Notes under the pieces: generated by a model
Databases searched by the model: none
What the model was told of the DNA's origin: nothing
What the model saw: only the letters and a program-made list of their open reading frames with translations
Shown: positions 17,430 to 37,936 of the stretch, piece by piece
Position numbering within the stretch: position 1 is the first letter of the stretch
Layout: each line of letters starts with the position of its first letter
IMG/VR virus record: IMGVR_UViG_3300037067_005627
Length of the DNA: 64,000 nucleotides
Reading direction: 5' to 3' (one strand)
Origin: an uncultured virus (IMG/VR IMGVR_UViG_3300037067_005627)
Taxonomy: Duplodnaviria > Heunggongvirae > Uroviricota > Caudoviricetes
Made by a program: the position numbers and the translations under genes

Positions 17430-17983
17430 TATAATGCTCCTATAAGATAACTGGCATTCCCTGTTTTCCCTGCCATCGAAATCAAACTATCCGCTATTTC
17501 TTTCTTTCTTCTATAATCAGCAATGTTTGTGCCTAATGTTATAGGAACGCTCAACCCCCCAATGATAGCCGCGATGTTCGATTCCTTTTCCCCTCTTGCC
17601 AGAGTCCTCTTCTTAATATCCACATCCGCTTCTAATCCCGCTTTAGAAGTCGCCAATCCTTGTTCAGCTATCTTCTCCCTTGAGGCCAATCCTGCGAAGA
17701 AGCGAGTATCTGCTGATTCCCTTTCCTTTTCCTCAATACCCCCAGGGCCAAGTTTCTTTTCTATCTCTTCCCTTTTCAATGCTATTTCTGCATTGCCAAT
17801 ATCCCTAGCATCAGCAGCCTTTTTCATTGTGATCAAGCGTTTAATACTATCAACAGCCTGATCGCCTACTACCCCTTCAAGCAAATAAGACAAGATATTT
17901 TGCTGAGGGGAACTCATTGCCTGAACTGCGTTGAGCTTTTTATTGAACTGAGGGGTATCAAAATTTGTTACAGGGGCAGTCAT
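17429..17983 (-). CDS. Probable small ejection protein
   Basis: Start MTAPV with GGAGG; C-terminal hydrophobic segment; position. Confidence 0.55.
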   Translation of the reverse strand: MTAPVTNFDTPQFNKKLNAVQAMSSPQQNILSYLLEGVVGDQAVDSIKRLITMKKAADARDIGNAEIALKREEIEKKLGPGGIEEKERESADTRFFAGLASREKIAEQGLATSKAGLEADVDIKKRTLARGEKESNIAAIIGGLSVPITLGTNIADYRRKKEIADSLISMAGKTGNASYLIGAL

Positions 17984-20724
17984 TATTCGTCCTCCCTTAG
18001 CAATTTGAATTGGTATCCCCAACCTAACGGCTGGAATCCTTTACGACTAGATGTAGTCGCCGTAAACTTTAATTGATGTAGCCATGACTTACGATTCAAA
18101 GATTTGGTAAATCTAATCGTGCTATCACTGTTCGTTCCATAAAGGGAACTGGAAAAGATAGATGTACCACTTGCGTAGTCTTCATCATAGTGGACAACAT
18201 TAACGCTTGTGTTTTCTTCTATTGGGCGGTACATCAGTTTGAATCGGCGAAGTAAAGTTTGTTGCCACGCATTTTCGTCAAGAAAGAATTTGCCTGTCTC
18301 AACTACCTGAGTGATTGAAACGCCACTCCAATCATATCCGTTCTCAAGTCTTGCGAGATACCCTGAATCTAAGCCTGCATAAATATAAGGGGCACCATCA
18401 GTTGCAGTTACCTCTATAGCGCACTGAGGCATATCAGCGGGGCCAGTGTCTTTTTCAAACCATTTACGCCTCATCAAATCATAAACAAACCAGTATTCAC
18501 CTACCCTAAGATTCCACTCTTTGTTTGCTTGATCCTTCCAAGCAAAAGCGTTTTGGATTGCATTAGAGCCTACATACAAACTGTGGCCAGGGTCAAAGAA
18601 AGGTTCAATCCCTTTGACCGGAACCATCGTGGAGCCGTCAAACATGAATGGGCCAGTAGCGGATAGCCATATAACAACATTCCTTAACAATTCGTCAGAC
18701 ACTAATTCATAAGCCATTTCAACTGTTGTTATCGTTGAAGGCGCAGGACATCCGATAGAAGAAGACACCCTAAATATGCTCTTTGCGTACTCAAGAGCTG
18801 TAGAACCTTTCATCACATAAGTCTCGTTGTTCTTGAAGAAGAGCAAAACAGAGTACATCTCTGCGCCATATCTATTAAAGAGGGATGCAGCGCCGGTGAG
18901 TTCTTTGTCTTCCCCTATGTAAAGGGACTGCCTTCCGTCATCACTAGTATCACTCCCGTTCCATACATCAGGCGCATACGTCTTGCTAAAATCAACCCTA
19001 CTTGATTGGTTGCCTTTAAGATAACCACACAAGAACACCCTGTTATCATAGAACACAGGGAACTTAAAATTGCCAAGAACTATTGGAGCTGGGATACCAA
19101 AGATCGTATCTATTACTATGGCATCATCTGCCGCCCCTGCCCATCCGATAGTTCCCCCTACTTCAAATTTATAAGTATATCCATAAACGCCAAAAGATTC
19201 TTTTGCAAACTCACTAGCCCCACTAGGAGGAGCCCAAGAAATAACCCCTGTCTGAAAGAATGGGGTTATGCCAGCCGCAGCCGTTCCGTCATAGAAAGTG
19301 GCAGGGATAGTCCATGTTGTGCCTGACCAATAATAAGGAGTTACGCCCTGAGTAAACGCATTTGTATTCCCCGATAGCATATCAAACTTGACTGCGTGTT
19401 GTTTCTCAGTAAAAACGGTAGTAATATAATCCCCGGCAACCAATCCCCCTATCTCTGCGCCTATTGGATACAGTTCTGAACTACGCTCATTCACTTCCAG
19501 GGTAAAATCTTTCAACACCCCTTTGCGAGAGACTTGAGCAGATAGGCAAGTTCTAGGCGTACCATCCCAAATATCAACAATGCTTTGCCATGGAATATCA
19601 AGGGATACATTGTAAACTTTTGCCGATCCCTCAACACGGAATAAGTACCAATACAAAACCATGCCTTCAATATATTTGGTCTTAGAAGTTCCAACAGTTG
19701 AAGGGAAACTAACCTTGCCATTAATAGTCAGCCCGCCCGTTCCGTCCGTTGTAACAACATCAGCCCAAGTTGTCCCATTCCATTCTTGACAATACACTTT
19801 CTTCCCTGCCGAAGAGTTCGCTGTCGCAACAAGATAAGTTACGCCAGAGATAGGGCGAGAAGAACCAACGAGCCAATAAACTGTGCTTCCACTACCGCTA
19901 ATGTTAGCTATATTGTCTGCATCGCTGTATTCGTTGTTTACTTGTTCTGTATAATCTTTGCCATCAATAACATATTCCGTGACATTGCTAGAAGTAACAA
20001 TGAACGCAGCCGCTTTAGCGTAGTCGCCTGCCCATATTTTTGTCTCTACCCCATTGCAATAAACAACTTGCCCACCAGGAGCAGGCGAAAACTGAGATCG
20101 CAACGTATCAACCGAAAGGATGGTTGAAGAAGTTGATACATTTGCCCAGGCAGTTCTCGTTATCCCTGACGATGTGGCGTCAACAAAAGCTGTTTTGGTT
20201 CCTATCCCCCACCCTGTCTTCTGCCCATAATCCCCTGTGATAGTCGAGTACGAAACATCGCTGTGAAGGGGGGTAGATTCAAAATTGCCTATATTTGGGA
20301 TAGTTGTCTTGTTCTGAAAAACTTTCGAAAACTGCAAACCAGAATCATAAACTTGGGCTAGAACATGGGATTCTGTCGGATAGTCTTTTTTGAAATGAAA
20401 ACCACCACGAGCCTTAAAGTTGTTAGAATTTATAATAGCGGAAGTAGCCTTTGTATATCCGCCTATCCCTTCAAGGCCAGTATCGGTAGGGCGCATATTT
20501 TGAAGGGTCTTAAAATTCCTGGCTCCAATTAGTGATGCGTCAATTCCAGGTTTCCAAACGCCGTCAAAGGAGAGAAAGACATTCACCATGCCTTCGCCGA
20601 ACTCAGATTTAGAGGCGTTTGCAAATGGAGAAGGGGGTTCTGCCTTCCCACGTGATTGCGAGGAAGCAGGAGAGGTAGTTGCGATTATGATAAAGGCAAT
20701 TAAATAATAAAGCAAACGCTTCAT
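17983..20724 (-). CDS. Tail nozzle/stabilisation protein (P22 gp10/T7 gp12-like) with N-terminal signal peptide
   Basis: Beta-rich 913 aa with RVDFS..PDVW, IGCPAPSTI, WLSATGPFMFDG and YAGLDSGYL; directly precedes the ejection genes. Confidence 0.7.
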   Translation of the reverse strand: MKRLLYYLIAFIIIATTSPASSQSRGKAEPPSPFANASKSEFGEGMVNVFLSFDGVWKPGIDASLIGARNFKTLQNMRPTDTGLEGIGGYTKATSAIINSNNFKARGGFHFKKDYPTESHVLAQVYDSGLQFSKVFQNKTTIPNIGNFESTPLHSDVSYSTITGDYGQKTGWGIGTKTAFVDATSSGITRTAWANVSTSSTILSVDTLRSQFSPAPGGQVVYCNGVETKIWAGDYAKAAAFIVTSSNVTEYVIDGKDYTEQVNNEYSDADNIANISGSGSTVYWLVGSSRPISGVTYLVATANSSAGKKVYCQEWNGTTWADVVTTDGTGGLTINGKVSFPSTVGTSKTKYIEGMVLYWYLFRVEGSAKVYNVSLDIPWQSIVDIWDGTPRTCLSAQVSRKGVLKDFTLEVNERSSELYPIGAEIGGLVAGDYITTVFTEKQHAVKFDMLSGNTNAFTQGVTPYYWSGTTWTIPATFYDGTAAAGITPFFQTGVISWAPPSGASEFAKESFGVYGYTYKFEVGGTIGWAGAADDAIVIDTIFGIPAPIVLGNFKFPVFYDNRVFLCGYLKGNQSSRVDFSKTYAPDVWNGSDTSDDGRQSLYIGEDKELTGAASLFNRYGAEMYSVLLFFKNNETYVMKGSTALEYAKSIFRVSSSIGCPAPSTITTVEMAYELVSDELLRNVVIWLSATGPFMFDGSTMVPVKGIEPFFDPGHSLYVGSNAIQNAFAWKDQANKEWNLRVGEYWFVYDLMRRKWFEKDTGPADMPQCAIEVTATDGAPYIYAGLDSGYLARLENGYDWSGVSITQVVETGKFFLDENAWQQTLLRRFKLMYRPIEENTSVNVVHYDEDYASGTSIFSSSLYGTNSDSTIRFTKSLNRKSWLHQLKFTATTSSRKGFQPLGWGYQFKLLREDE

Positions 20725-21104
20725 GGGGTCACTCCTGATTCAGCTTCTTTCTCACTAATTCCAAAAACTAACTTCTTGATCACTTTTGCTTCTTCTTTAG
20801 TTAGTTTCTTCCCTTGAGATTCAAGAACAGTCGAAGGACTATCAACTACCAAAAGAAAAGTAATCCCCTTTTCATGCCACTCTTTAATCTTTGTCTTGGT
20901 ATAATCAGGATAAAATTTGCCGCCCCCAAAAAATTCATCAACCCCCTTGCGATTTAATCGCCCCTCAATGCTCTGTAAAACTTCGCCATTCCTATTGGTA
21001 TAAGGGCGTTCTCCAAGAGTGAATTGAATATATGTGTCCTCTGCCCAAACTGTTGAGACCAGAAGCAACCCGCCAATTATCATGCCCCATATGTTTTTTT
21101 TCAT
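20721..21104 (-). CDS. Signal-peptide-bearing hypothetical tail-region protein
   Basis: MKKNIWGMIIGGLLLVSTVWA-ED. Confidence 0.7.
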   Translation of the reverse strand: MKKNIWGMIIGGLLLVSTVWAEDTYIQFTLGERPYTNRNGEVLQSIEGRLNRKGVDEFFGGGKFYPDYTKTKIKEWHEKGITFLLVVDSPSTVLESQGKKLTKEEAKVIKKLVFGISEKEAESGVTP

Positions 21105-21113
21105 AGACGACCC

Positions 21114-21929
21114 TCACGATCCATTATCAATCAAACACGTCTTGGAGGCTACTATGCCATACATCCTCACATTGCCGCCCGTGATGCCGCCATCCCCCCA
21201 TACGTGTCGATATGAGCCAGTAGACATGTTAGCGAAACTGATAGCCCGGGGGAACGTGAGTAAACTGCCAGCCGCAAAATCGCTCTTTTTGGTGGGTATT
21301 TCGCCACTGGTGAATCCCCCATAGGTATTTACGCCATCACACCACACGGCTATAAACGTATCGGTGCTGCCATCTCCCGACATGGTATTAGCGGTGTATT
21401 GCTCACTGCTCGCTCCGCCGGCATCATCCAGGGTTACGTACAAGACTCCGGTGGGATCGGTCTGGATATAGAAATACAGATCGGTATCATTCGCCGCAAA
21501 TTGATAGCTCCATGCCCCGAACCCCATGTACCGTTGTTTCAGAATCAGCGTCCACGCCGATTTGCCTCCAAACAGGCCGTTAAACCATGTGTCAGTAAAC
21601 TCAAATCCATCGTTCGTGTTGTCATTTAGCCGATAGAAATATGTGCCATCAGATTGGGCTGCTGCAACAGCACCGATCTGCAACAGCACCAAATCAACGC
21701 CGCTTAAAACGCCCTGGCCTATCTCATTGGCTGAGTCGGAACCGGTGAAAAGAGCTATATAGGTATTAGCATCCCCCCAGCCTGATTCTGTGATCTGATC
21801 CCACGTGGCTAAGGATGTGTTAATACCGCCTGCGCCTCCCCCGCCACTTATAAAAATATGGGTGGCAGTATTGGCAACTCCTACCAATAAAAAAATACTC
21901 GCTATTAAGGGAAAGAGAAGCTTTCTCAT
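21114..21929 (-). CDS. Signal-peptide-bearing beta-sandwich (LamG/ConA-like) protein, candidate receptor-binding protein
   Basis: MRKLLFPLIASIFLLVGVANTA; aromatic beta-rich body with TFIAVWCDG. Confidence 0.6.
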   Translation of the reverse strand: MRKLLFPLIASIFLLVGVANTATHIFISGGGGAGGINTSLATWDQITESGWGDANTYIALFTGSDSANEIGQGVLSGVDLVLLQIGAVAAAQSDGTYFYRLNDNTNDGFEFTDTWFNGLFGGKSAWTLILKQRYMGFGAWSYQFAANDTDLYFYIQTDPTGVLYVTLDDAGGASSEQYTANTMSGDGSTDTFIAVWCDGVNTYGGFTSGEIPTKKSDFAAGSLLTFPRAISFANMSTGSYRHVWGDGGITGGNVRMYGIVASKTCLIDNGS

Positions 21930-22720
21930 TTCTTATTCCCCTCCAGATAGCCCTCAAAAATAAGATGTATCCAACTAGGCGTTTTTATCCCGAAGTCCAT
22001 AAGAACAGTACGCCTTGGCGGAATTGTTGTCGTTCCTGCCAAGAAGGTTTTATAGTATGTCCCTGTCCCGGTCGTGTCAATACTCAAATAATTGAATATC
22101 GTTGACCCTGATCCATATTGCGTGTTATATTCGGACACACTAGACACTATTCCCTCAATGGTAACTCCTGATTCAGATGCAAAGATTGTAGCCCCTGTAA
22201 TATAAAGGGTTGTGCCCCCATTTGTAAACAAAGGCATACTGTTCTTTGCCGTCTGGCTTCCAGGGCTTAGGATCGTTATATCAACGCCATAAGTTGATTC
22301 TATAGATCGAGTATTGGTACCATCGCCAATAGCTAAAGACTTAGAGGGGGAATGGTAAGCTATTTGCCCATCCCTAGTCGGGGCAATACTCATAGGGGCA
22401 AGTTGAAACCCACTCGCAAAAATCGTAGCCAACTCCCATCGACTTACCGCAGCCCCGACATCATCAGGAGTAATCAGGTATGGAGAGCTTTCCGTACCCC
22501 CATTCAAAGTGACACGATGGATATATATGGAAGCCCCTGACATTGTAATCGCAGTATCATACGGCCCCATACTTACCCCTGACACAACAACATCAAGAGC
22601 GCCGACGCCTCCACCAGTCAAACTGGTGGCATACCATACTCGTCTAGTGTCGTCTGCTATTGCAACAGACGCACTAAAGAAAACAATTAATGCAAAAAGT
22701 AACGCTTTGATCTTCATCAC
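21926..22720 (-). CDS. Signal-peptide-bearing tail fibre/appendage-like protein
   Basis: MKIKALLFALIVFFSASVAIA-DD; ESSPYLITPD...RW and APTRDGQIAY...LAIGDG fibre-like motifs. Confidence 0.6.
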   Translation of the reverse strand: MMKIKALLFALIVFFSASVAIADDTRRVWYATSLTGGGVGALDVVVSGVSMGPYDTAITMSGASIYIHRVTLNGGTESSPYLITPDDVGAAVSRWELATIFASGFQLAPMSIAPTRDGQIAYHSPSKSLAIGDGTNTRSIESTYGVDITILSPGSQTAKNSMPLFTNGGTTLYITGATIFASESGVTIEGIVSSVSEYNTQYGSGSTIFNYLSIDTTGTGTYYKTFLAGTTTIPPRRTVLMDFGIKTPSWIHLIFEGYLEGNKK

Positions 22721-23439
22721 TTAGCCCCCTCTGTTGAAACCGTTGGGCTCAAATCCCGATGGAGTATAATCCTCTTGTTCTCAGCCATAAGATTGTTGAA
22801 CAGTTTGAGGTAATATGTCGCCTTCTCTTCCGACCTTTCCCTGAAATACGCCTTCGCCTTAACGTAATAAATAATAGCTGTATCGAGATAAGCAGGGATA
22901 GTTACAAGCGAAGATGCTGTTGACACAGCCGGATGCGTACCTATCAGGGAAGCAATCAGTGTCGTCCCTGATATAGCACTGTTAGGTGTAGGAAAAACGA
23001 AAATCTTATTTTGCCATTCCCACCACAACTTTGGTCTTGGCTCTTGAACAGGAACATTTATCCCTGGAACAAACCTCGCCAGAAAGTAATTCCGAGTAGG
23101 GCTGTCAGTTACCCCTGAATCATATATGACATGATTAATGTCATAATGTGTAGTGGAGACAGCATAAGACATAGCACCAGTGACTAACGTGATCTCTTCA
23201 GTCTCTTCCATGCAGCCAGTCAAGGAAGCGATAGTTTGACAAGCTTCGTTAATCCACTGAACGAAATCGCTGTCATTATAAAACGAATCTTCACTGACAT
23301 CAGCATTAAGGTCTGCCCTAACCCTATCAATAAAGATTTGGGCAGATAACCCTGAAGAGGTCGTGGAACCTGCGAGACATATCCCTACGCACCAAAAGAG
23401 GATAACAATGCTTATACAAAACTGACGAAGGACTTTCAT
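22717..23439 (-). CDS. Head-tail adaptor-like (ring) protein with N-terminal signal peptide
   Basis: IDRVRADL...FVQWINEA, ITLVTG..SYA, IFVFPTP and IPAYLDTAIIYYVKAKAY adaptor pattern; preceded by MKVLRQFCISIVILFWCVGICLA. Confidence 0.7.
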   Translation of the reverse strand: MKVLRQFCISIVILFWCVGICLAGSTTSSGLSAQIFIDRVRADLNADVSEDSFYNDSDFVQWINEACQTIASLTGCMEETEEITLVTGAMSYAVSTTHYDINHVIYDSGVTDSPTRNYFLARFVPGINVPVQEPRPKLWWEWQNKIFVFPTPNSAISGTTLIASLIGTHPAVSTASSLVTIPAYLDTAIIYYVKAKAYFRERSEEKATYYLKLFNNLMAENKRIILHRDLSPTVSTEGAK

Positions 23440-24425
23440 AAAACCTCCATTAATGGGCTAGGAATAGGGGCATCCATCCTTGACCTTTTGCCAGCGATCG
23501 CCTTATTGACGAAATCATCAAAGATAAGATAAAGGCGATCAGAAGTTAATGCCGCAGTGTTGACATCCCCTTGTTGAGCCTGGACATTTCTAACCTTCAT
23601 CCACCAAACAGCGTAAATGGCAATAGCCATTACATGGGAAGGGTCGGGGAACCCCCACATCCCTATAGGGCTAAACACAGGTGGGGGAAAACAGAAATAG
23701 TCTAACTTGATGGTATCGCCGCTTGTAGAAGTTGCATACTTGAACCGAAGTTTAAACTTTGCTGAAGACTGAATGGCGAATGTATCCCCATTAGCCCACG
23801 CTTGCGCTACCGTATCCTGAAATATCGCTGTCTTCAGGATAGTATCACTTGTCCTATCAAGAACGATTCCCCTATGGTCTTTCCCATTTGTCGTATTCCT
23901 AACCCTATAGCGCGGATACACAAGATCACTGCCGCCAGTAAAAGTGGCAGACAAATCAGTTAGATTGCTCTCCCCATTGGAAAGAGTACCATCCGCATCA
24001 GCAGCGCCAGTAATCTCTAAAGGGGATATGGGGTTTTCAACGATGTCAAATCCGCTAGGAATCTCTTCTTCTTCGGCAGTATCGTAATCCCAAAAACCAT
24101 CATAGGGCTCACGATATATCTTCTCGCCTTGCGTTTCCCCTGATTGGGTATAAAGCAAGACATCCGTTCTGCCATCCCTTGCCTTCCTAGCAATCCGAAT
24201 AAAATCAGGGGGGCATTCATAATCTCTTTGCCCATCCACGGAAGTTATGCTTTCTTCATTTCGCAGAAGCAAAGTTTGCTTTGCGAATTCACACGCCCCA
24301 ATATCCCCTAATTCATAAGCCTGATAATCGTTTTTAATAGTGGCATCAGATGATACCGCCCCCATTTGGGCCTTCTCTTGTTTTAGGAGAAGGTCAACAT
24401 AATCCAAGAAGAGTTGGCCGTCCAT
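23436..24425 (-). CDS. Head-tail adaptor-like protein without signal peptide, with an inserted beta domain
   Basis: ITSVDGQRDYECPPDF, KLDYF and HVMAIAIYA adaptor pattern; position after the capsid genes. Confidence 0.6.
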   Translation of the reverse strand: MDGQLFLDYVDLLLKQEKAQMGAVSSDATIKNDYQAYELGDIGACEFAKQTLLLRNEESITSVDGQRDYECPPDFIRIARKARDGRTDVLLYTQSGETQGEKIYREPYDGFWDYDTAEEEEIPSGFDIVENPISPLEITGAADADGTLSNGESNLTDLSATFTGGSDLVYPRYRVRNTTNGKDHRGIVLDRTSDTILKTAIFQDTVAQAWANGDTFAIQSSAKFKLRFKYATSTSGDTIKLDYFCFPPPVFSPIGMWGFPDPSHVMAIAIYAVWWMKVRNVQAQQGDVNTAALTSDRLYLIFDDFVNKAIAGKRSRMDAPIPSPLMEVL

Positions 24426-25069: not shown

Positions 25070-25525
25070 TTAATAATCAGAGAATCCCCCACGAACATCA
25101 TACATCACGCACACATCAAGGGTAAATGTCGCCCCAATGGCGCCAGACGGAATGACATCAATGGTATCAGCCGCACTGGAATATACTTTGCCAGGCTGAT
25201 AATTGTTCGGGCCTTCATCAATTTCGGCACCATTTGCAACACCACCGAAAAGGCTCATTTGGCCTGCATTGGTAAGATCAAGAGCGCTATACCAGCCGGT
25301 TGTGTCATTGCCATCACCTACCCCGATAGTAATAGCGAGAGCCGACCACGAAATAAGTATATCAATAATCCTAGCATTCTTGGGAATCTGTACCATTTGC
25401 ATAACTTCGGCAGCCGCCACCGCCCCGTCATCTGCGTAGGTAAAATGTCCCCAAGCGCATTGAACCTGCCCATTTGCCCTATCAGGGGCAATACCAGATA
25501 TTACCTGTTCGGATCTAACGGTCAT
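25070..25525 (-). CDS. Probable capsid decoration/cement protein
   Basis: Directly after the capsid gene; IPKNARIIDI and IGVGDG pattern; GGAGGT RBS before MTVRS. Confidence 0.65.
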   Translation of the reverse strand: MTVRSEQVISGIAPDRANGQVQCAWGHFTYADDGAVAAAEVMQMVQIPKNARIIDILISWSALAITIGVGDGNDTTGWYSALDLTNAGQMSLFGGVANGAEIDEGPNNYQPGKVYSSAADTIDVIPSGAIGATFTLDVCVMYDVRGGFSDY

Positions 25526-25557
25526 ATCAAACCTCCACCATAACAAAAGTTAATAAG

Positions 25558-25591: not shown

Positions 25592-26695
25592 TTACGAGTT
25601 CGGGTCTTTGCAATAGGTATCAAATCCGAACATTCCAAAACGCTTGGAGTTAAAGATAGTTGCCTTGATTCCGTAAATGGAATTTGTGGTTATAGCGATC
25701 TGATTCCCTCGGTCATCGGTCTCTTCATTCCAGCCAAAACGACCAGCTCCGCCAACTCCCGAAGGGGCTCCGGTTCCAGCCCATGCGACAGTCAGGGCCT
25801 GTGCGCCAAGGAACAGGGCTCTTGCGCCGGGAAGGTTATCACTATCGCCATAGGTCTCCTGTCTCGGAATGTACCGATGTTTGTGCAGGATGACGTTTGC
25901 ATACTCGCCAAGAGCGTTCTGGTAAAGTTTGTTCCCCTTTCCACGCTCTCCAGCGAACTTCGTAATGTCCTGCCAATCCCCGGTAGAGGTATTCACCCTC
26001 ATCTGATGCTGTTGCCATGTGTGCATCAGCATAATGTGCTTATTCTCCCCGCCGACATTGAAAGGCTGAATCATCGGGTCGCTCGTTTCTGCCTTGGAAA
26101 TACACTTCTCTATAGCGACCAAATCCATAATGTCGGCCTCATCAATCGCGCCTGCTGATGTGGCGTCACCGGCGAAAAGGAGATGCGAAGTATCGCAATC
26201 AGTAAGGGTATTTGACGCCCTTCCCGTCCAGCTGAGACCGAAATGGAGAGCGGTGTCTATCCCCCGAATACCGGCAGCATATATGAACATCTGCTGATCG
26301 AGGTCTTCAGCCCACCAGGTAACAAGAGCATCCCGGCTTTCCTTCCGAAGATTGTAAGCAACCCTCTGTTCAGACATTTTGCCGCCGACCTTCGTTCCCT
26401 TCCTACGCTGATCAACGTAAACGTAATCGCTGTAGAAAGAGAGGGGTTCTTCGGCCAATGTCCCTTCGATCTGAGTATCCCCTTCAGTTCCATCTCCTGC
26501 CAACTTCATGCGAAGGCCGTAGGTGATTTTATCGCCTTTGGTCTTGGTAAGGTCTTTCAGCACCCTTACCATGTTATCGAAACCTTCGCCCATGAACTTG
26601 AACATGTACTGCGCAACAGCTGCTTCTACAGCAAGACTGTCTGCCCACTTGTGTTGAGTCAACGCATCATCATACGCAAACGTAGTCGCACCCAT
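25592..26695 (-). CDS. Major capsid protein, N4-gp56 (DUF4043) family
   Basis: DLTKTKGDKITYGL..KLAG.G..G...EG..E, DQRR, LRKESRDALVTW, RALFLGAQAL and EETDD.GN motifs. Confidence 0.9.
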   Translation of the reverse strand: MGATTFAYDDALTQHKWADSLAVEAAVAQYMFKFMGEGFDNMVRVLKDLTKTKGDKITYGLRMKLAGDGTEGDTQIEGTLAEEPLSFYSDYVYVDQRRKGTKVGGKMSEQRVAYNLRKESRDALVTWWAEDLDQQMFIYAAGIRGIDTALHFGLSWTGRASNTLTDCDTSHLLFAGDATSAGAIDEADIMDLVAIEKCISKAETSDPMIQPFNVGGENKHIMLMHTWQQHQMRVNTSTGDWQDITKFAGERGKGNKLYQNALGEYANVILHKHRYIPRQETYGDSDNLPGARALFLGAQALTVAWAGTGAPSGVGGAGRFGWNEETDDRGNQIAITTNSIYGIKATIFNSKRFGMFGFDTYCKDPNS

Positions 26696-28471: not shown

Positions 28472-30637
28472 TCAGGAATTGGCAACCCGCTTCTTTGCAA
28501 TGCCGATCACACCCCCTTTCTTTTTAGCTTTGTTTTGTTCAACCCTATCCTTCTCTTTTTGAATCGCTTCGACTTCTTTCATGCCCATATCATGTTGCGT
28601 CTTACCAGTCTCAAGACGCAACCTTTCCTCTTCCCTATCAGCAGATGTAAGCGCAAGTTCTGCATCTATGTCCGCTCTTGTAGATTGCTTTTCAGTATGA
28701 GCAGCTTGCGAAATCAATTTCTTAATCTGTGCGATAGTCTTCTCATTCTTTAGCGCTCTCTCTTCCAGATCGAGAGCAGTTACCTTATTTTGAATTTCAC
28801 TCTGCCGTTGCCTTTGTGCCTGTATCTGTTTCGCAGCTTCTTCTTTGTCAAAGTCTTCCCCCTCTGGAGGGATTTCAAGATTGAATGCCTGTCTCAATCT
28901 CGTAAGGATAAACTCTTTCTTTGGCAAGTCAAGCATTTCAAAAGCAACGTCCATAATAAGTGGCACCGCAGATGGGTCAGCTCGCTTTGTTGACTCTATA
29001 AGTATCTGAGCGAACTTCTCTCTCACGACATCGCTGAATATTTCATCAGTAACTACGATATCAAACTTGATGTCTTCAAGGCGATTCTTAATGACAACGC
29101 CTCCGGCCCCCATTGTCCTCTGATTGACAACTATCAACTTATCAGAGCCTCTAAAGCTATCCGTCACACGGATAACCTTTTCTTGCTTCCAAAGGCTCTG
29201 AATGCCAGCCACCGCGAGATAGCCTAATTTAGTTTTCCCTTTCTTTAGGTTCCCGAAGAGAGGGGCTGTTATTGTACCACCCTTCTGTGATCGCTGTTGC
29301 ATTGCGACAGAAGAAACGGCATTGGTCTCATAACCCATTTGCTCTCCAACAGCCCCAGTGATTTCGCCTATCTCCCTTTCCGATTCTTGGAGTAGTTGAA
29401 TCTGCCCTCTCATCTCGCTATTCTGATCTTCTATGAGAATATGCTCCCCAATTCTCTTCCCTTTACGCAGGATAATTACCCCATCAGGACGCATTGCTTC
29501 CTGACGTAACGCCCCCATGTCATCCACAGCTCCATCTTCGACAACAACCCTTTTAGCGTTTAATTTTGCAAGGGCTGTCGTCCTTCGTTTGTTAGTTTCA
29601 ATATCCATATCCCTAATCTGTCTAGGGACACCATAGGGTTTATTAAAGCGATCAGTATATCCGACAAAACACGCAAAGGGAAAATCATCATGCCCATGAG
29701 GTGTAGGTTGATCAAAGAGGATATTATCCCCCAACAAGAGAGCTACTCTCATTTTAGGCACATAACCTTCGACAATCTCTTGGCACTGTTGCACAAGTTG
29801 CCCTATCTCGCTATCAGTCTTCCCCTCAAAATCATAAGCCCTGCCATCCGCAAAAGTAGCGAATAAAAGCCGTTTCCTGACAGTGTACCACATCTCAATG
29901 GGCATTACCCTTTTGCGAGCACGATCCACCCATATAGATGCTGTCCTCCAATCACCGCCATCAGAAAACGGCTCCCATATAGAACCTGTCGGGGCAAAAG
30001 GGTAAACCCCATTTAACCGAGAAGGGGCGCTACTAAAGTAACTTTGAATCACTTCTTTCTGTTTAGGTAGCATCCCTATCAGATCGTGAAGGTCAACCCA
30101 CTTTTGCAAAAAAACATAGCGAGTAGTATCAACATCAAACCAAGGATCGCCATGCGCGTCCCACCACATATATTGCCAACTTCGTAGAGCTAACTTGACA
30201 ACTTCTTTCCTTGGGTCAGGGTTTTTTAAAACCTCTATAGCCCCAAAGCCCGGAATAATCTGCCCACGAAATGCCTGATGAATCTTAGAAAGGCCATCGT
30301 TTTGATCCATAACAAATTTCAGGCTTCCAGACGCAATGCTTGTAACATCTGTATCTGCCACCGTCCTTCCCTTAGCCGAAATATCTGTTTGAGAAGATAT
30401 TTGCAATCCCAATAGCATATTCACGGTAGGGAAGGTTCTGTTAATCGTCAAAGCGTGCATCCCAAGAACATCTTTTAATTGCTGAACTTGATCAGGCGTC
30501 CATTGTATTCCATCATACATCTCAAAATCACGCCATTGTTCAGCCCGATTATCGGCAAAAGCCTCATAACTATCCCCGACCCAGCCAAGGAAAGTATCTA
30601 TGCCAGGATTAGCCTGAGAGTCTCTCTCAATAGCCAT
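28472..30637 (-). CDS. Portal protein, P22-like
   Basis: D..MYDG.QW, LTINR..P.V, YGVPR...D.....NKRR and A.SSVAMQQR motifs; C-terminal coiled-coil barrel. Confidence 0.9.
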   Translation of the reverse strand: MAIERDSQANPGIDTFLGWVGDSYEAFADNRAEQWRDFEMYDGIQWTPDQVQQLKDVLGMHALTINRTFPTVNMLLGLQISSQTDISAKGRTVADTDVTSIASGSLKFVMDQNDGLSKIHQAFRGQIIPGFGAIEVLKNPDPRKEVVKLALRSWQYMWWDAHGDPWFDVDTTRYVFLQKWVDLHDLIGMLPKQKEVIQSYFSSAPSRLNGVYPFAPTGSIWEPFSDGGDWRTASIWVDRARKRVMPIEMWYTVRKRLLFATFADGRAYDFEGKTDSEIGQLVQQCQEIVEGYVPKMRVALLLGDNILFDQPTPHGHDDFPFACFVGYTDRFNKPYGVPRQIRDMDIETNKRRTTALAKLNAKRVVVEDGAVDDMGALRQEAMRPDGVIILRKGKRIGEHILIEDQNSEMRGQIQLLQESEREIGEITGAVGEQMGYETNAVSSVAMQQRSQKGGTITAPLFGNLKKGKTKLGYLAVAGIQSLWKQEKVIRVTDSFRGSDKLIVVNQRTMGAGGVVIKNRLEDIKFDIVVTDEIFSDVVREKFAQILIESTKRADPSAVPLIMDVAFEMLDLPKKEFILTRLRQAFNLEIPPEGEDFDKEEAAKQIQAQRQRQSEIQNKVTALDLEERALKNEKTIAQIKKLISQAAHTEKQSTRADIDAELALTSADREEERLRLETGKTQHDMGMKEVEAIQKEKDRVEQNKAKKKGGVIGIAKKRVANS

Positions 30638-30673: not shown

Positions 30674-31339
30674 TTATCTCTTGCCCAATATGAACATGTA
30701 TGGAGTTACGCCACCTGACCACCCAAGCTGTTTGGTCGCGTAAAAAGTCGTAGAAGAAGTGACGGTTGTTCCCGTTGGGGCTGTGTTTATCCCGTAATAA
30801 TTTGCCTCTTTTGGGAAGACCTTTGCCTTTCCAACATATATGGAATTGCCACTTGTCGATACATATTCCGAAGTAGCAAATCCGGATGTCCCTGCCGCCA
30901 ACACTTGCATCTTCCACACAGTAACGCCAGAGCCCGCATTGGGCACCCATTTGTATGTCCACACCCCCGTTACGCCAGTCGTGCCATGAGTCGAAACAGG
31001 CATTGGCGCATCTGCAAACCAATATGCCAAAACCTCGTTAAGTCTAAACTGAGATGGAGAAAGAGTTACCCCGCCACCAACATAAAAAGCTGCACTGCCT
31101 CCCTTGAAAGAAGTGGTTCCGCCTTCCACCGTGCAACCACTCCCTGCTATCGTGGTGACAGGATCGAAAGTGGCGACAATAAGGTCATAAGGGCCAAGAG
31201 GAATCTTCTTAATAACCTTGACTGCCGCTTCAGAAACGCCGGTCGCATTATGGGCGTTACTCCAATGATCGTCAGCCGCAATCGCCGGAATCACCCACAA
31301 AAACATAACGCACACTATTGCCGCAAAAAACTTTTTCAT
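30674..31339 (-). CDS. Signal-peptide-bearing Gly/Thr/Ser-rich protein between terminase and portal
   Basis: MKKFFAAIVCVMFLWVIPAIA-ADD; AAGGAGG RBS. Confidence 0.75.
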   Translation of the reverse strand: MKKFFAAIVCVMFLWVIPAIAADDHWSNAHNATGVSEAAVKVIKKIPLGPYDLIVATFDPVTTIAGSGCTVEGGTTSFKGGSAAFYVGGGVTLSPSQFRLNEVLAYWFADAPMPVSTHGTTGVTGVWTYKWVPNAGSGVTVWKMQVLAAGTSGFATSEYVSTSGNSIYVGKAKVFPKEANYYGINTAPTGTTVTSSTTFYATKQLGWSGGVTPYMFILGKR

Positions 31340-31351: not shown

Positions 31352-32985
31352 TTAACAAATCAAAAGTGGATCATTAGGTCTGCCAAGTTTACCATCTTTG
31401 CCTCTTCCTTTAGGAGAGGAGCCCCTTATCCTCACAAGGACATACTGCAATGCGTCATGGAGATCGGCGTATTTGTTTTTAACAGGGTTCTCCGAATAGA
31501 TTTCTTCTCCAGATGCGCTACTAGCAATCCTTGGGTAAAAATATCCGCCAAGAAAGCCATTGATAATGCCGACACAATCCGGGTCAACCAGAAAAGCAGG
31601 TTCTCCGCCAGTAACCATTTCCATCATCTGCTCATCAACAGCATTAATCCTTGCTTTAAAGTTCTGTTCCGACTTTTCCAGGTACAGGCCAGGACATTCT
31701 TCCATCATCAATTCGGAATTGGAAGTTAATGTGCCATCTCTCCTGCTGAACTGTTGCCATCCTGCCGGGTCTGCGTAGTCAACCCATTCTGCCCCAGGAT
31801 AAATTTTATTGCAAGCATCTATAACGCGCTTTGCAAACGAAACGATATTTTCGCGCTCTCCCCAATATTCTCTCATAACTTGAACTTGCCTTGGAGTTGG
31901 GGATTGAACAATGACTACGCCAGGATGAAGTCCTGTATTATCCCAGCCACGATAAAGAAGTTCCTTACTCCATACTAGGTTTGCCTTTGCCTCATGAATC
32001 TTTCGGGCAAAATTATTGTAAACCATTTTTCCTTTAAGTCTTATCCCCGGCTCCCCTTTAATATATCTCGCCACCCAATCAGGTGCGTAGGCATATGCTT
32101 CTGCCATGCGATCATAATAACCAGGGATAAGATTCTCTTCATTCTCCCTTTCAGGTTGCCAATATCCTGCGTGTCCCTTCAAAGGCTTCCTCTCTGGTTT
32201 CGGGCCAGGGACAAAAGTTTTCCAATCAAATGCCCAATACATATTCGATTCTGTACTAGGCGGGTTAGAAATTTCTATCCCGAATTTCATCTGGTATCTT
32301 TCAGGATGCTCTTCGAGTTCATGTTGAATCGCCGGTTTATCAAGAGGGCGAAGATCGTGATACTTTTTTCTCAGCCTTGGATACCACACCCTCATCGGGG
32401 GAAAACGCCCGATCCTCTGTTTAAGCATATTCTTTATGTCGATATGAATTTCGTCAGCTTCGTCAATCAAGACCAAGTTAATTCATACCCTCTAAACTGC
32501 TCAACCTCTTCTGGCCTATCGCAACTCCTAAACAAGACTTCGATTTCTAACGTAACAGGCTCTTGTTTTGCATCAAGCGTTACATATTGCATGTTGTAAG
32601 TCTTTTCGTTCTTGTTATAACTCCCATAGATACCGGGGGGGAACCACTCAAAAAAGGTCTTCTGCGTTGAATCTATCAACATTGGATAGGTATTCCTTAA
32701 GACAATACCCCTTGTCTTATTCAGACCATATTTATTCCATAGCATCATTGGAATACGATACCCAACTTCAACGGTAGCCCCTGCCGTTTTGCCACTACCA
32801 ACAGGGCCAACGATAGCTTTGATGTTATCAGTCTCCGCATGGAATCGCCTAATCGTTGGGAGGGCTTGATAAACGAAAGTTCTCTTAACAGTAAGAGGCT
32901 CGCCAGTTACAGGGTGAAAGTATTGCTCCCCCTGTACTTCTTCAATATCATCATACTCAAGTCGCTTTACTGCGCTGCGCCTCAT
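31352..32985 (-). CDS. terL: Terminase large subunit, split over two frames at about 32470
   Basis: ORF 32467-32985 has GPVGSGKT and RNTYPML.DS; ORF 31352-32476 has LIDEA, SNPP, GWD.G and D..DALQY; one extra base would join them. Confidence 0.9.
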
Positions 32986-33365
32986 AATTTATCCAGAACC
33001 CCTTTCTTATGATAAACGCCCCATCCGCCCAACACTACCCCCCAATACATAGGGTAGCGCACAAACCAACTCTTCCCACGCTCCTTCATAGCCTCAAAAA
33101 AAACATCGTTGGCTTGAGAGTAACTGGCATAAGGTACAGAATCTATCCTGTATAGATAATCATGCAAGACTGCTTCTCTATGCGCCCTATCTCCAAACAT
33201 CATGTAGACAATAGGCACTCTTGGGACTGAGGCAAAATCAGTTTCAAAGCCTGTCGGAACAGTTATTTTGCCTAGAATATCAGATTCATAAATCAAGGGA
33301 CTGTCAAGAACCCATGTCCCATCATCAATACACCTGACATCTAATTCTGTGGTAAACTTGCTCAT
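32982..33365 (-). CDS. DUF1353-family protein
   Basis: VP.GF.TDFASVPR, AVLHDYLY and A..VF.EAM motifs. Confidence 0.85.
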   Translation of the reverse strand: MSKFTTELDVRCIDDGTWVLDSPLIYESDILGKITVPTGFETDFASVPRVPIVYMMFGDRAHREAVLHDYLYRIDSVPYASYSQANDVFFEAMKERGKSWFVRYPMYWGVVLGGWGVYHKKGVLDKL

Positions 33366-33367: not shown

Positions 33368-33553
33368 TTAATGCCCTTCTTCTCTTATATCTCTATGTAT
33401 GACCAAATCCCCTTCTTCATATCTTTCAACTATTGGCTCACACCAGCAATTTTCCGATTCGATATGGCCACATGATTCAGGAATAATCTCAGGAATAATC
33501 TTAGGACAAAATTCCCATTTTTCGTACTGCCATTGACGTTCTACTTCAGTCAT
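33368..33553 (-). CDS. Small Cys/His phage protein
   Basis: H....CWCEP......HRD. Confidence 0.6.
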   Translation of the reverse strand: MTEVERQWQYEKWEFCPKIIPEIIPESCGHIESENCWCEPIVERYEEGDLVIHRDIREEGH

Positions 33554-33978
33554 CATCCTTCCCTCATTATCTTCGCTAATTCCTTAGCCCTCTTTGGGGC
33601 AAGTTGAGAATCTATAATCTCATCTCCTGCCATGTCCCAATCTTCGACATCTATCGCATCTATCAGGTGGTAGAAGGCTTTGCCTGGAGGCGCGAAACCT
33701 GCATAGCCCACGTTGAACACGATATTGACAATGACCTTACGCCTATCGTCAGTAAGTTTGCCATCCCATTGAGAAAAAGCTTTCGCAAGCCAAACTTCAA
33801 CTTCTTCAATATCTTGTTCAAGGAGAACTTCTGCTTCTACCTTAGAAACCTTTTTGGGTAAATCCGCTTGCTTCTTTGCCCAATGCCCATAGCCGACAGA
33901 CCATCCATCTGCATCGGGATATGGGACTGAACGAAATCCCTCTTGCCGTTTGAGTTGCCCTTTTAAATCAAAACTCAT
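33553..33978 (-). CDS. Endolysin, T4-lysozyme-like (GH24)
   Basis: EGFR..PY.D..G.SVGYGH; FNVG; RAKELAKIMR.G. Confidence 0.85.
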   Translation of the reverse strand: MSFDLKGQLKRQEGFRSVPYPDADGWSVGYGHWAKKQADLPKKVSKVEAEVLLEQDIEEVEVWLAKAFSQWDGKLTDDRRKVIVNIVFNVGYAGFAPPGKAFYHLIDAIDVEDWDMAGDEIIDSQLAPKRAKELAKIMREG

Positions 33979-34382
33979 GGCTTAACCCTCCAAATCTCAT
34001 CCCTAATAAAATCAACTGCTGTTTTGACCTCTCCAAGAACAACAGCGTTAGCTTGAGATATACTAGCTCCAGCTTCAACCTTCTCTGATAAATTAGCCAA
34101 CTCTCCCTCAATTTCATTTCGGCACACCTTTTGCCTGCCAATACAGCCTTCTAATCCCACAATAGTTGATTCAAGCCTGACTAGTCTCGGCTCCAAATCT
34201 TTTATTGGTTTTAAGGATTTTTTCCCTATCCCATTCTTCTTTACTATATCTAGCCCTGCGGCATTTAGGATTTTCTTTATCATAAATAGCACGCCTCCTA
34301 AAATAGTCGCCACCCCAAGAACTGTATCAGGTCTGCTAATATTATCATAGATGTCTTTCCAATCGAGAGGGGGTGTAGCCAT
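33975..34382 (-). CDS. Single-TM plus coiled-coil protein, holin candidate
   Basis: TM segment VLGVATILGGVLFMI; adjacent to the endolysin. Confidence 0.55.
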   Translation of the reverse strand: MATPPLDWKDIYDNISRPDTVLGVATILGGVLFMIKKILNAAGLDIVKKNGIGKKSLKPIKDLEPRLVRLESTIVGLEGCIGRQKVCRNEIEGELANLSEKVEAGASISQANAVVLGEVKTAVDFIRDEIWRVKP

Positions 34383-34570: not shown

Positions 34571-34618
34571 AACCTAACTCCGCCACAAAGAATGTCGTTA
34601 CAAAGATTACTCAATACA

Positions 34619-34837: not shown

Positions 34838-34992
34838 CAATCGCCCCTTCCATCTAAGTTCCACTTACCAAATATCCAATCAACCGCTTTCCCTATTAAA
34901 GAACAAAAGTATGCCCCAATAAACAACCCTAAGACGATGACCGCAACCACTATCCAGTCTAGCCATTGAGATTCCCTTAGAGTTTGAAGCAT
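34837..34992 (-). CDS. Small single-TM protein (51 aa, not in the ORF track)
   Basis: MLQTLRESQWLDWIVVAVIVLGLFIGAYFCSLIG...; coupled to the downstream gene. Confidence 0.5.
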   Translation of the reverse strand: MLQTLRESQWLDWIVVAVIVLGLFIGAYFCSLIGKAVDWIFGKWNLDGRGD

Positions 34993-34995
34993 CTC

Positions 34996-35442: not shown

Positions 35443-35446
35443 ACCA

Positions 35447-36679
35447 TTACGGACTACCCCACATATTGATTTCTCCTGTATCCACTATTCGGGAGAAGAT
35501 AGCCAGTTGTGCTACATGAGCCCGGCCCCAAGGGGATGTGAGGACGCGAAGTTGATTGCCTACACTAAATGCTCCGTCAAAGTTCTGTTCTATGCCCCAG
35601 GTTAGACCATTGCCTGTGTCTATGCCCACTCTCATTTTAGCAATATTGCTACTCAGGTAGCCCCACTTGGCAACTAGCTTGACCATTTTATCTGCAACAG
35701 GTGTATAGGCTACTGTCGCCCCGGTAGTGCCATCAGTACAAGTCACTCCGCTTGCATAGACCTGAAAAAGGGTATCCCCGGAAAGGTCGAGGACGGCTGG
35801 AGAAACTCCTCCAGTCATGTCAGAAGCATTATAGCCGGGTCGGAACCAGCAAACTGCTGTGCCGTGGGGGGGAAGATTTTCATATTCATTATTGACTTCT
35901 TTGATTGACCAGTCATCAAAATAGGCAGTTGTTCCAGATGGAGTTGATTTGAAAAGATAGATAGTATGCGTTCCTGTAACCCTAGCTGTAAAGAAATAAG
36001 AAACCTGCCTATATGTTGTTTTATTTGTCTCTGGGAAGGCCGTATTAATATAATATCCGGCAGTGGAATTATAAATCTTTAATCCGCCTGGTTGTATTCC
36101 ATTGTCTGCTGTCCAACCTTGCACTTTATAGGTTTGGCCTGAAGTACACTGTACCCCCTGAGTTAGTTCCGGCCCTGAACCTGTTCCCATTACCATAACT
36201 GCCGCATGAGATCCTCCATGTACTGTCACTCCCGTATCCCAAATCTGTCCTGAATTTGGGGCTTCTGTCCAGGAACCAAAATTAGAAGCCCCGGCAATGG
36301 TCTCAAAATCCCCATTCGTAACTAGCTCACCCCCTAAACTCTCCGCAAACATGCTCCCGCCAACGGGGGAAGTGGGCAGTATCCAGTAAGCATATTCCGA
36401 TGTGCCAGTACCAAGCCTAATTGTTGGAATTTTGGCTATGTTCTCATAGACAGGCGAACCAGAAACCCCACCCCCTGCTGCCTTCCGGCCATACGCTACT
36501 GTTGCCCCTGAGAAGTCCACAAAGAAGGCTACTCCATGCGGTTCAGTCCAGACCGAAACCCCGCCCCGTGTGCCTACGAATACCGGCTTGTTATCGTCAT
36601 TTGGTTCATAGACCTGGGCATGAACTGTGCCGATAAGCAAGAACCATACCAAAACCCCATAGAGGATTGCCTTTTTCAT
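35447..36679 (-). CDS. Signal-peptide-bearing protein with a CBM4/9-like carbohydrate-binding domain
   Basis: MKKAILYGVLVWFLLIGTVHA-Q; ELVTNGDFE...W...HGGSHA...YFDDWSIKEV. Confidence 0.7.
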   Translation of the reverse strand: MKKAILYGVLVWFLLIGTVHAQVYEPNDDNKPVFVGTRGGVSVWTEPHGVAFFVDFSGATVAYGRKAAGGGVSGSPVYENIAKIPTIRLGTGTSEYAYWILPTSPVGGSMFAESLGGELVTNGDFETIAGASNFGSWTEAPNSGQIWDTGVTVHGGSHAAVMVMGTGSGPELTQGVQCTSGQTYKVQGWTADNGIQPGGLKIYNSTAGYYINTAFPETNKTTYRQVSYFFTARVTGTHTIYLFKSTPSGTTAYFDDWSIKEVNNEYENLPPHGTAVCWFRPGYNASDMTGGVSPAVLDLSGDTLFQVYASGVTCTDGTTGATVAYTPVADKMVKLVAKWGYLSSNIAKMRVGIDTGNGLTWGIEQNFDGAFSVGNQLRVLTSPWGRAHVAQLAIFSRIVDTGEINMWGSP

Positions 36680-36680
36680 G

Positions 36681-37106
36681 CTACTGCCTCGTCATAGTCC
36701 GGTTACACTTCACGAATACACTAACCCCGGTTCCGGGATAGGTGACTTCAAATTCTGCCCCTGCTTCCTTTGTCCATGCCGTCGTGCCGGATTCGTTGAT
36801 GCTGCCGGAAGTTACAAACAGGGTAGCCCCTGCCGCCGTACACTTATAAAGCGTTCGCGTACCGACCGGGGGCTTTGAGGTAGTGGGGTTAGGTATCTGA
36901 ATCACATACACGCCCGTATCATATTCCTGGCCCATGTTTCCCGCAGTGTGAACGGCATTGGCAGAGATAGTGGTGCTCTCCACTCTAGAAGTTGGGGAAT
37001 AGCCCTCCCCTAACTCTACCTTTTCAGCTGGATTAACTAACGGGACATGTAGCCATAAAGCTAATCCCACCACCATATACATAGCATACAAAATATATTT
37101 CTTCAT
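36681..37106 (-). CDS. Signal-peptide-bearing hypothetical protein
   Basis: MKKYILYAMYMVVGLALWL. Confidence 0.7.
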   Translation of the reverse strand: MKKYILYAMYMVVGLALWLHVPLVNPAEKVELGEGYSPTSRVESTTISANAVHTAGNMGQEYDTGVYVIQIPNPTTSKPPVGTRTLYKCTAAGATLFVTSGSINESGTTAWTKEAGAEFEVTYPGTGVSVFVKCNRTMTRQ

Positions 37107-37138
37107 CCTATCCCCCTAGGCTTTATGTGTATCTGCCA

Positions 37139-37936
37139 CTATCGCGTATAGTAGTGGGGTTTGACCTTTGAAGCCGTAGTCACATCCCCTTTGAACCTGA
37201 ATAGCCTTGCTTCCCTTTTGCTGATCGTCAACCTGGAACCAGCAGTTAACAATGTTGAATCGGATGTCGGCGTAGCCCCGTCCATATTGTACCTTATCCC
37301 ATTGTCTTCAACCGCTATAACTATGGTTTCCGTCCCTTCAGGCGTAACCAAACTTGACGTGCCGCTCAAACTACTTACGCTATAAACGCTTATCCCACTC
37401 GCTATCCCGAACCCTTGTGGGTCTGCCCATCCAGCGCCACCCCTCAAAGTCATCCTTGCATAAGGCGTAACTCCAAGCCCTTGTGTCGTACCGCTCACCA
37501 CCCCTTCCAGACATGCCTGCATCTCAGGCCGCAAGAAATAGGTAGGGGGGAACTTGAACACCTTTGGCTCCCCTGTAGCCCCACTCACCACATTCTCCCC
37601 TATCACTATGGGAATCCTCGGAGCCAACGCCCACGCAGTAACGCTATTTATGTTACTACACTTCACCCACACACTCACGCCTATAACACTCGTAGCCCCA
37701 CTTATACTTTCCCACTGGAAGCTACCTATCCCCTCGCTATACATCTTCCCCAATTCTATCACGGCGCAAGGGCTGACCCCTGTGACGCTTGCGCCACTAG
37801 CCCCATACCTAGTAGCCGCACTCATCATCTTCTCTTCCACAGGGTAAATCCTAAGCATCTTGCTCTCTTGATCCGCCCAAGCGTTACTTAAACAGCAGAT
37901 CAATAACCCCACCACCAATGCAAATATCTTTCCCAT
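37139..37936 (-). CDS. Signal-peptide-bearing protein with a phage-type C-terminal beta domain
   Basis: MGKIFALVVGLLICCLSNAWA-DQ; C-terminal VEDNGIRY.MDG.TPT....LL.AG. Confidence 0.7.
   Translation of the reverse strand: MGKIFALVVGLLICCLSNAWADQESKMLRIYPVEEKMMSAATRYGASGASVTGVSPCAVIELGKMYSEGIGSFQWESISGATSVIGVSVWVKCSNINSVTAWALAPRIPIVIGENVVSGATGEPKVFKFPPTYFLRPEMQACLEGVVSGTTQGLGVTPYARMTLRGGAGWADPQGFGIASGISVYSVSSLSGTSSLVTPEGTETIVIAVEDNGIRYNMDGATPTSDSTLLTAGSRLTISKREARLFRFKGDVTTASKVKPHYYTR

Follow-up and report, generated by a model that had tools for sequence, protein, structure and literature searches.

Why should the tail proteins of a short-tailed phage begin with N-terminal leaders of the Sec type? 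The question is raised by ~64 kb of uncultured phage DNA (IMG/VR record IMGVR_UViG_3300037067_005627; the whole stretch of 64,000 nucleotides is referred to as the window). In T7-type and P22 phages (adaptors gp11 and gp4, respectively) leaderless tail proteins are assembled onto the filled head in the cytoplasm, and to our knowledge all textbook pathways of tailed phages place the assembly of both head and tail in that compartment. The minus strand of the window encodes the late genes (37936 to 6298), the plus strand the early genes and those for replication; genes mentioned below are on the minus strand unless otherwise stated. Judged from their translations, eight or nine late genes begin with a Sec-type leader, those for head, portal and internal proteins without one. 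Working export signals are the best reading of the comparative pattern described here, according to which the tail of this phage is probably made outside the cytoplasm, by a route not described for tailed phages.

Leaders were monitored by a rule requiring a 10-residue Kyte-Doolittle mean of at least 2.2, a net positive n-region, a site with small residues at -1 and -3, and a short uncharged stretch; this is a hand-set criterion, not a trained predictor. Of the 68 open reading frames (ORFs) in a greedy ORF list of the window, 8 are flagged. Seven are late genes already named in a previous sequence-only reading of the same DNA, and encode the nozzle and proteins of 127, 264, 240, 221, 410 and 265 aa. 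The eighth ORF resides on the plus strand (1475-1756), in the early region, and features a lipoprotein-type leader (LAVG↓C, the arrow marking the predicted cleavage point) and the C-terminal residues LSGVTP. The sequence-only reading had counted nine leaders, and the N-termini that it quoted are all present in the minus-strand ORF translations, at 20724, 21104, 21929, 22720, 23439, 31339, 36679, 37106 and 37936. Seven pass the rule; the gene starting at 21929 misses it by stretch length only (hydrophobicity 2.84, charge +2, cleavage sites present), and the gene starting at 37106 is borderline (hydrophobicity 2.17, no good cleavage site). A weaker tenth leader had been proposed at 35442; the protein has no basic n-region there, and hence no leader. 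When read from an internal ATG, the ORF 5926-6294 shows a leader-shaped N-terminus (MKRLLLTCVLALFLCGSAGA↓EE). Portal, capsid, the 422-, 158-, 190- and 329-aa proteins and the four genes following the nozzle gene are all leaderless by the rule, in line with the earlier statement that portal, scaffold, capsid and ejection proteins are devoid of leaders.

The leaders in the window are real, and greatly exceed the background. In 32 related loci with leaderless nozzles, 15 of 551 plus-strand genes (2.7%) satisfy the rule; the corresponding counts of plus-strand coding sequences are 2 of 34 for Bcep22 from TerS onward and 0 of 18 for the Atu_ph08 stretch. Sixteen loci of the leader type have leaders in 58 of 229 genes, against the 15 of 551 in the 32 leaderless-type loci, a contrast partly produced by the definition of the two groups. 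Since ORFs were called mechanically, and the rule was not trained, the N-termini might be start-codon artefacts or chance hydrophobic stretches without function. This is extremely improbable: a Shine-Dalgarno-like stretch of the GGAG/GAGG/GGGG type precedes all nine leader genes, four of which overlap the stop codon of the upstream gene by their coordinates (both features had been claimed, rightly), leaders are kept across 39-77% identity, the background is low, and leader states change together, as detailed below.

Which parts carry the leaders? The 240-aa protein (22717..23439; leader CLA↓GS) is an adaptor of the SU10 type, scoring 62.8 bits against PF24175 (SU10_adaptor; cut-off 27), with residues 36-220 matching profile positions 6-180 of 194. 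With the match to the Pfam model setting in at residue 36 only, the leader is extra to the SU10 adaptor family. The 913-aa protein (17983..20724; leader PASS↓QS) is the nozzle. Its model, built from 24 sequences, reaches a predicted local distance difference test (pLDDT) score of 84.2 and a predicted template-modelling (pTM) score of 0.81; in it residues 3-16 form a helix, and 16-31 are disordered. Podophage tail entries account for every one of the 32 top Foldseek matches. The cyanophage A4 tail ranks first (E 9.6e-19), the SU10 nozzle (7z47_G, 7z4b_DW) matches at E about 1e-16, T7 gp12 (9jyz_P, 6r21_a) and P22 gp10 (8u10_1, 8eap_D) at E 1e-13 to 1e-11. Template-modelling (TM) scores by query are just 0.26-0.44, because domains sit at different angles. 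Both the adaptor and the nozzle had been assigned in the sequence-only reading, and both assignments hold. One nozzle gene only was seen in the window. As internal start of the nozzle, an ATG that shortly precedes the conserved domain (codon 46) was discarded, being poorly provided with a Shine-Dalgarno sequence and not conserved; in the adaptor gene no candidate is present, in-frame ATG, GTG and TTG codons being missing across codons 9-70.

Three leader genes lie between adaptor and nozzle. The 264-aa protein (21926..22720; leader AIA↓DD) belongs to a tail-fibre family of 22 ORFs sharing the mature N-terminal motif ALTGG.xGALD, with C-termini ranging from 99 to 870 aa; members are mostly found just after the nozzle gene, as expected for a fibre. 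The 271-aa protein (21114..21929; Sec-type leader) appears to have a LamG/ConA-like lectin fold, its atlas model matching Laminin_G_3 parts with TM scores by query of 0.58-0.68, and has no Pfam match. The third is a small partner gene of 127 aa (20721..21104; leader VWA↓ED). The label of tail and appendage proteins given to the leader-bearing set is right for adaptor, nozzle and fibre, and unproven for the genes starting at 31339, 37106 and 37936.

Just upstream of the adaptor gene, 23436..24425 encodes a leaderless protein of 329 aa (the 'MDGK' family), overlooked in the sequence-only reading, as were the twin-arginine-type leaders of relatives and a possible boundary between adaptor and nozzle in locus L044, both described below. 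The model of the 329-aa protein (pLDDT 83.6) carries an inserted beta-barrel. Its best, weak matches in the PDB are podophage head-to-tail adaptors and neck rings (E 3e-4 to 1e-2, TM by target 0.41-0.67), namely VP1 (8zkk_B; E 3e-4), GP4 (8jov_G; TM by target 0.67), DEV (9bgm_B), Pa223, and the crAss001 ring proteins (7qoj_D/E/F); the score against the Pfam SU10_adaptor model is 19.5 bits, under the cut-off. BLAST matches to the family come from 25 loci, with 23 distinct sequences; loci of either leader state are among them, and no member has a leader. We propose that the 329-aa protein is a head-side ring capping the cytoplasmic head. A second family of leaderless adaptor-like proteins (~282 aa) has its gene immediately ahead of the leader-bearing adaptor in L007, L009, L015/L033, L020, L022, L030 and L037. 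It resides in 8 of 16 leader-type and 3 of 32 leaderless-type loci, and is the only family standing out in this comparison; no signal peptidase or chaperone gene special to the leader-type loci turned up among the same 16 and 32 loci. A leaderless adaptor-like gene of 214 aa was found in L066. By analogy with the known neck rings, two tandem adaptor-like genes suggest two rings.

Leaders are preserved in close relatives of the adaptor and the nozzle and in the family of the 410-aa protein, as the export reading would have it. All 8 sequences of the adaptor alignment (seven database homologues and the L002 copy, 39-77% identical) bear a leader. The leaders are basic and hydrophobic and end in (Y/F/L)(A/G)↓G(S/T), the sequence of the hydrophobic region being not conserved. 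With an adaptor profile, 844 matches were obtained among 1.84 billion representatives. Among the best 150 of them, 108 pass the leader rule, and leader-bearing sequences make up at least 108 clusters at 50% identity, denoting a large clade; the other 42, read by eye, include 9 sequences with a leader and a long n-region, 4 cut sequences, 6 fragments, and 23 full-length leaderless proteins. The ranking leans to leader-bearing sequences, because the profile had been built from such sequences. The N-termini of 24 nozzle homologues, also read by eye, are with a leader in 10 cases, apparently cut in 2, and without a leader in 12. All three homologues of the 410-aa protein keep the leader, which is therefore found in 4 of 4 family members.

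The discovery of homologues beginning after the hydrophobic segment had been indicated as a finding that would undermine the export reading. Some homologues do so, but throughout the module, in other lineages, and exactly at the predicted cleavage point. Leaderless adaptors start with M(A/G/S)SQQTSS, leader-bearing ones read ...FA↓GSQQTSS; leaderless fibres start with MANNIYGATSLIGGG, leader-bearing ones read AIA↓DDTRRVWYATSLTGGG; and three leaderless homologues in the 127-aa family start at the mature N-terminus of the window protein. Starts at the cleavage point fit an export signal that can be detached, and do not suggest a miscalled start, and their occurrence in three families indicates that the leader is an add-on placed before an unchanged mature protein. 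The same data bear on the possibility that leaders are uncleaved signal anchors, tethering parts to the outer face of the inner membrane, where assembly would take place in two dimensions, with release on membrane destruction or by a later cut. Tethering would hold the parts concentrated, a good cleavage site is missing from the gene starting at 37106, and ASS↓Q, at which the nozzle would be cut, falls short of AxA in strength. Yet most leaders feature a short hydrophobic region followed by small residues at -3 and -1, the site at which the leaderless homologues of the three families begin marks the mature end, and helices left on 12 adaptor and 6 nozzle subunits would need room in the rings; anchors are therefore unlikely.

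The pattern of distribution of leaders among related phages was analyzed by a nozzle-alignment scan of 66 loci. Forty-nine loci were kept, which together with the window make 50 rows, 47 of them different; 17 loci with a nozzle ORF shorter than 800 aa or broken were dropped (L011, L013, L017-L019, L026, L036, L039, L041-L043, L063, L065, L067-L069, L071). The nozzle tree was obtained by a quick IQ-TREE run on 811 columns, leaders having been trimmed beforehand, and leader states were set by the rule and by reading of the N-termini. Leader state changes at least 7 times on the tree, at least 5 times on well-supported branches; shuffled labels require 15.4 changes on average, and none of 500 shuffles was as low as the observed value. 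Nozzle and adaptor could be compared in 40 rows, with leaders on both in 17, on neither in 21, and a mixed state in two (L044 and L046, which are one phage). Nozzle and fibre, compared in 20 rows, both have leaders in 13 and both lack them in 7, no row being mixed. Independent pairs are concordant in 4 of 4 cases for the adaptor, one further pair showing no difference, and in 4 of 4 for the fibre (p 0.125 each). Five further phages, standing outside the nozzle tree, are also concordant (both with leaders in L077, L081, L089 and L099, both without in L085-L087). As far as the N-termini tell, nozzle, adaptor and fibre gain or lose leaders jointly, a single partial exception apart.

The exception is L044/L046, in which leaders are clear on the fibre and on two further genes downstream, and missing from the adaptor. 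LFCVSAHA↓QD is the start of the nozzle ORF as called; upstream, the open frame continues as KIKKKRQTLRSGKLFICLIFAV, in which ATG, GTG and TTG are all missing. At ~9900-9960 a nozzle leader is readable after a stop codon, and overlaps the end of the adaptor gene. Such a leader is likely to be made from an ATC-type start. Nozzle, adaptor and fibre are all leaderless in L035, a close relative, so that the boundary between leaderless and leader-bearing parts can apparently fall after the adaptor as well as before it.

Joint change is relevant to a further possibility, that exported copies are not parts of the virion and act in the envelope, where they would block or degrade receptors or exclude other phages, virions being made of unexported molecules or of molecules translated from internal starts. 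Lectin-like and receptor-binding-like proteins are plausible on the envelope, L061 keeps an exported LamG cassette in spite of a leaderless nozzle and adaptor-like gene, and the nozzle has the in-frame ATG at codon 46. An envelope role is quite unlikely, as no function readily suggests itself for an adaptor ring or a nozzle alone, the internal starts are either missing or badly equipped, as said above, and the joint switching of leader state by parts in mutual contact is what a need for a common compartment would predict.

Relatives of the 271-aa lectin-like protein differ from it in the type of leader. LamG proteins start with twin-arginine-type sequences of the form RRxF[LI], namely RRDFLK (L006), RRKFIE (L037), RRSFLK (L007) and RREFLK (L061). 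Against TIGR01409 (cut-off 16.7), the L007 protein passes with 19.9, the L006 protein falls just under with 15.6, and the L037 and L061 proteins have no match; matches to the Pfam twin-arginine family PF10518 are all under cut-off. The small gene following LamG is leaderless in L006, L007 and L061, and has a Sec leader of its own in the window. The twin-arginine translocation (Tat) system carries folded proteins together with signal-less partners, according to the hitchhiker principle, and the arrangement found fits co-export of the two proteins in the relatives and separate export in the window. Hitchhiker pairs such as HybO/HybC resemble the three relatives in having a twin-arginine-type leader next to a leaderless small neighbour, and differ from the window pair, in which both proteins bear Sec-type leaders. 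Prediction of a complex between the LamG and 127-aa proteins gave a score of 0.00, which was counted neither for nor against binding.

Taken in this light, leaders would be working export signals, served by Sec in this phage and by the twin-arginine route for one protein of the relatives. Head building, from capsid, portal and internal proteins, would take place in the cytoplasm, where the 329-aa protein would add a first, adaptor-like ring. Distal tail proteins would cross the inner membrane, shed the leader and fold in the periplasm. Exported in this way would be the nozzle, the ring of the SU10-type adaptor, the fibre of 264 aa, and the lectin-like protein along with its small partner, probably joined by the 410-aa protein. 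The set would probably pre-assemble in the periplasm; head and tail would meet only once lysis proteins break the inner membrane. That the distal tail is exported and joins a ring-capped cytoplasmic head at lysis seems to us moderately probable, given the comparative pattern. A wider version is advanced more tentatively, and with some doubt: that a large clade of uncultured short-tailed phages makes a ring-capped, DNA-filled head in the cytoplasm and a complete tail, with adaptor ring, nozzle, fibres and lectins, in the periplasm, some pairs travelling folded through Tat, and joins the two at lysis.

Several data weigh against the proposed route. Cysteine counts are no different in leader proteins and in the rest, and give no sign of periplasmic disulfides; a disulfide signature of periplasmic folding, sought as a marker, was accordingly dropped. 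In L061 (2169-7973) five leader genes reside upstream of a leaderless nozzle and a leaderless adaptor-like gene; this cluster includes the twin-arginine-type LamG gene, its leaderless small neighbour being also found there. In L048 (7362-7928) a homologue of the 158-aa head-side protein of the window has a clear leader, and the tail genes are leaderless. Podophage heads lacking adaptor, nozzle and plug tend to lose DNA, which makes any delay before the joining of head and tail a real difficulty. No leaderless adaptor-like gene was found in 6 of 16 leader-type loci; for three of the six, the contig starts some 1-2 kb ahead of the adaptor. Of the four LamG relatives, one alone passes a curated twin-arginine model. 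The paired tests are underpowered at the p values given, and not mutually independent. The leader rule is home-made, leader states were partly set by eye, and the nozzle leader of L044/L046 requires an ATC-type start, failing which the fibre would be discordant.

Compared to known systems, the window nozzle model matches both T7 gp12 and P22 gp10; the tail proteins of the window, unlike those of the two phages, bear leaders. Virion proteins of Ff phages, which carry leaders, SAR endolysins and spanins all use the host Sec route before release, as proposed for the window proteins. The Ff virion is non-tailed and extruded through the envelope, whereas leaders in the window reside on nozzle, adaptor and fibres of a head-tail phage which also encodes an endolysin; SAR endolysins and spanins are non-structural lysis proteins, whereas the window leaders are on tail parts. 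The tail of the Escherichia phage SU10 (Kuravirus) is made up of portal gp6, adaptor gp11, nozzle gp17, needle gp18, and fibres gp12/13/16, the adaptor featuring a helix bundle, a fibre-dock domain and a C-terminal embracing loop which binds the portal (PMC9509320). The window shares with SU10 the adaptor family (by Pfam), the nozzle fold, and a similar order of adaptor, fibres and nozzle. It differs in having a second, leaderless adaptor-like gene and no recognised needle gene, and identity is too low for tblastn or phmmer matches.

Cultured relatives were sought among 50,697 phage records by tblastn, the queries being the adaptor and nozzle of the window, the L022 nozzle and a second-clade adaptor (P0071), with no match; in the closest cultured phages only the portal matches, at 25-29% identity. 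Searched by sequence, the PDB gave no match to the nozzle and one chance match to the adaptor profile. Full-text literature searches, most subscription journals being outside their coverage, found no leader-bearing adaptor, nozzle or fibre of tailed phages. The Bcep22 record reports a 'potential signal peptide' on the virion-associated gp70, the N-terminus of which has no basic n-region and fails the rule. In line with the usual expectation, a preprint describes the P22 tailspike as lacking a signal peptide, presumably because no export is required (10.64898/2026.09.13.751334).

A first scan of genome contigs found no host. In a second scan, near-identical phage genes were found in metagenome-assembled genome (MAG) bins assigned to Pirellulales and Rikenellaceae (L072 and L073), and the MAG bin of a sister contig is labelled Syntrophorhabdaceae. 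Near-identical genes in bins of two phyla make bin labels no guide to the host, and all three labels were rejected as host evidence. Host labels coming from MAG bins only, leaders might reflect an unusual cell plan or export system, targeting proteins to an internal compartment, for example, where particles are built. This is very improbable: besides the conflict between bins, the leader-bearing clade is large and varied, and the leaders, about 19-26 residues long, look like ordinary Sec leaders of diderms.

If true, export and joining at lysis would represent a second topology of phage morphogenesis, in which lysis doubles as an assembly step, and periplasmic folding and modification become available to tail and receptor-binding proteins. 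Annotation pipelines taking a signal peptide as evidence against a virion protein would mislabel such genes, in a clade for which no cultured member was found.

The reason for export may be a maturation step that takes place in the periplasm only, and the motif S-G-V-T, strongly enriched in the exported proteins of this phage, could be its mark. The pattern S-G-[VI]-[ST] occurs 12 times in the 3,067 residues of 11 leader-bearing window proteins (those encoded in 17983-23439, 30674-31339, 35447-37936, 1475-1756 and 5926-6294), and once in the other 15,792; 2000 shuffles gave a mean of 0.70 and a maximum of 5. The excess is about threefold in related loci. Some copies fall on family-invariant residues. 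The pattern may mark a site of modification, or reflect no more than a strand habit common to these proteins.

The remaining leader genes reside farther upstream. The 410-aa protein (35447..36679; leader VHA↓QV) has a receptor-binding-like modular build: its homologues have in common the mature N-terminus and ~110 C-terminal residues, the middle part being swapped. A sister phage with a 99% identical nozzle carries a 478-aa version of this gene (P0035), with the same ends and a different middle. The exchange appears to be of the kind seen in host-range switching. The nearest atlas clusters of the 410-aa protein are viral, and contain Laminin_G_3/CBM_4_9 domains, which is a lead only. No relatives of the 410- and 221-aa proteins were found in viral contigs. 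The 221-aa protein (30674..31339; leader AIA↓AD), encoded between terminase and portal, has no family match, Pfam at E up to 1 included, and searches at the same threshold gave nothing usable for the 141- and 265-aa proteins. The 265-aa protein (37139..37936; leader NAWA↓DQ) has as sole family match a weak one, CHB_HEX_C_1 (17.5 bits, below cut-off). The 141-aa protein (36681..37106) contains one hydrophobic 19-mer, at residues 5-23, and its N-terminus may be either a borderline leader or a membrane anchor.

Leaderless head genes of the window include the portal (28472..30637; P22_portal, 322 bits), the major capsid protein (25592..26695; Phage_capsid_3, 126.7 bits, phrog_334), and the 158-aa head-side protein (25070-25546). 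The four genes following the nozzle gene (6298..18022), encoding proteins of 197, 367, 701 and 2678 aa, are taken as internal or ejection proteins by position only; the 2678-aa protein contains an LPD38 domain (Pfam). No tRNA genes were found in the 64-kb window.

The lysis cassette comprises an endolysin of the phage lysozyme family, without leader (33553..33978; PF00959, 49.6 bits, phrog_7), and, directly upstream, a 135-aa protein (33975..34382) in which a single transmembrane segment leads into a long coiled coil. By its predicted build the latter could be a holin or an i-spanin-like protein, and is closer in look to an i-spanin or a class III holin than to a usual holin; no lipoprotein partner gene adjoining 33975-34382 was seen. 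Family searches identified a DUF1353 protein at 32982..33365 and, next to it, the large terminase, made up by two overlapping ORFs (32467-32985 and 31352-32476). The 172-aa N-terminal part and the 374-aa part, which begins with LVLIDEADE, are in different frames, and the split could be due to a frameshift, a sequencing error or recoding.

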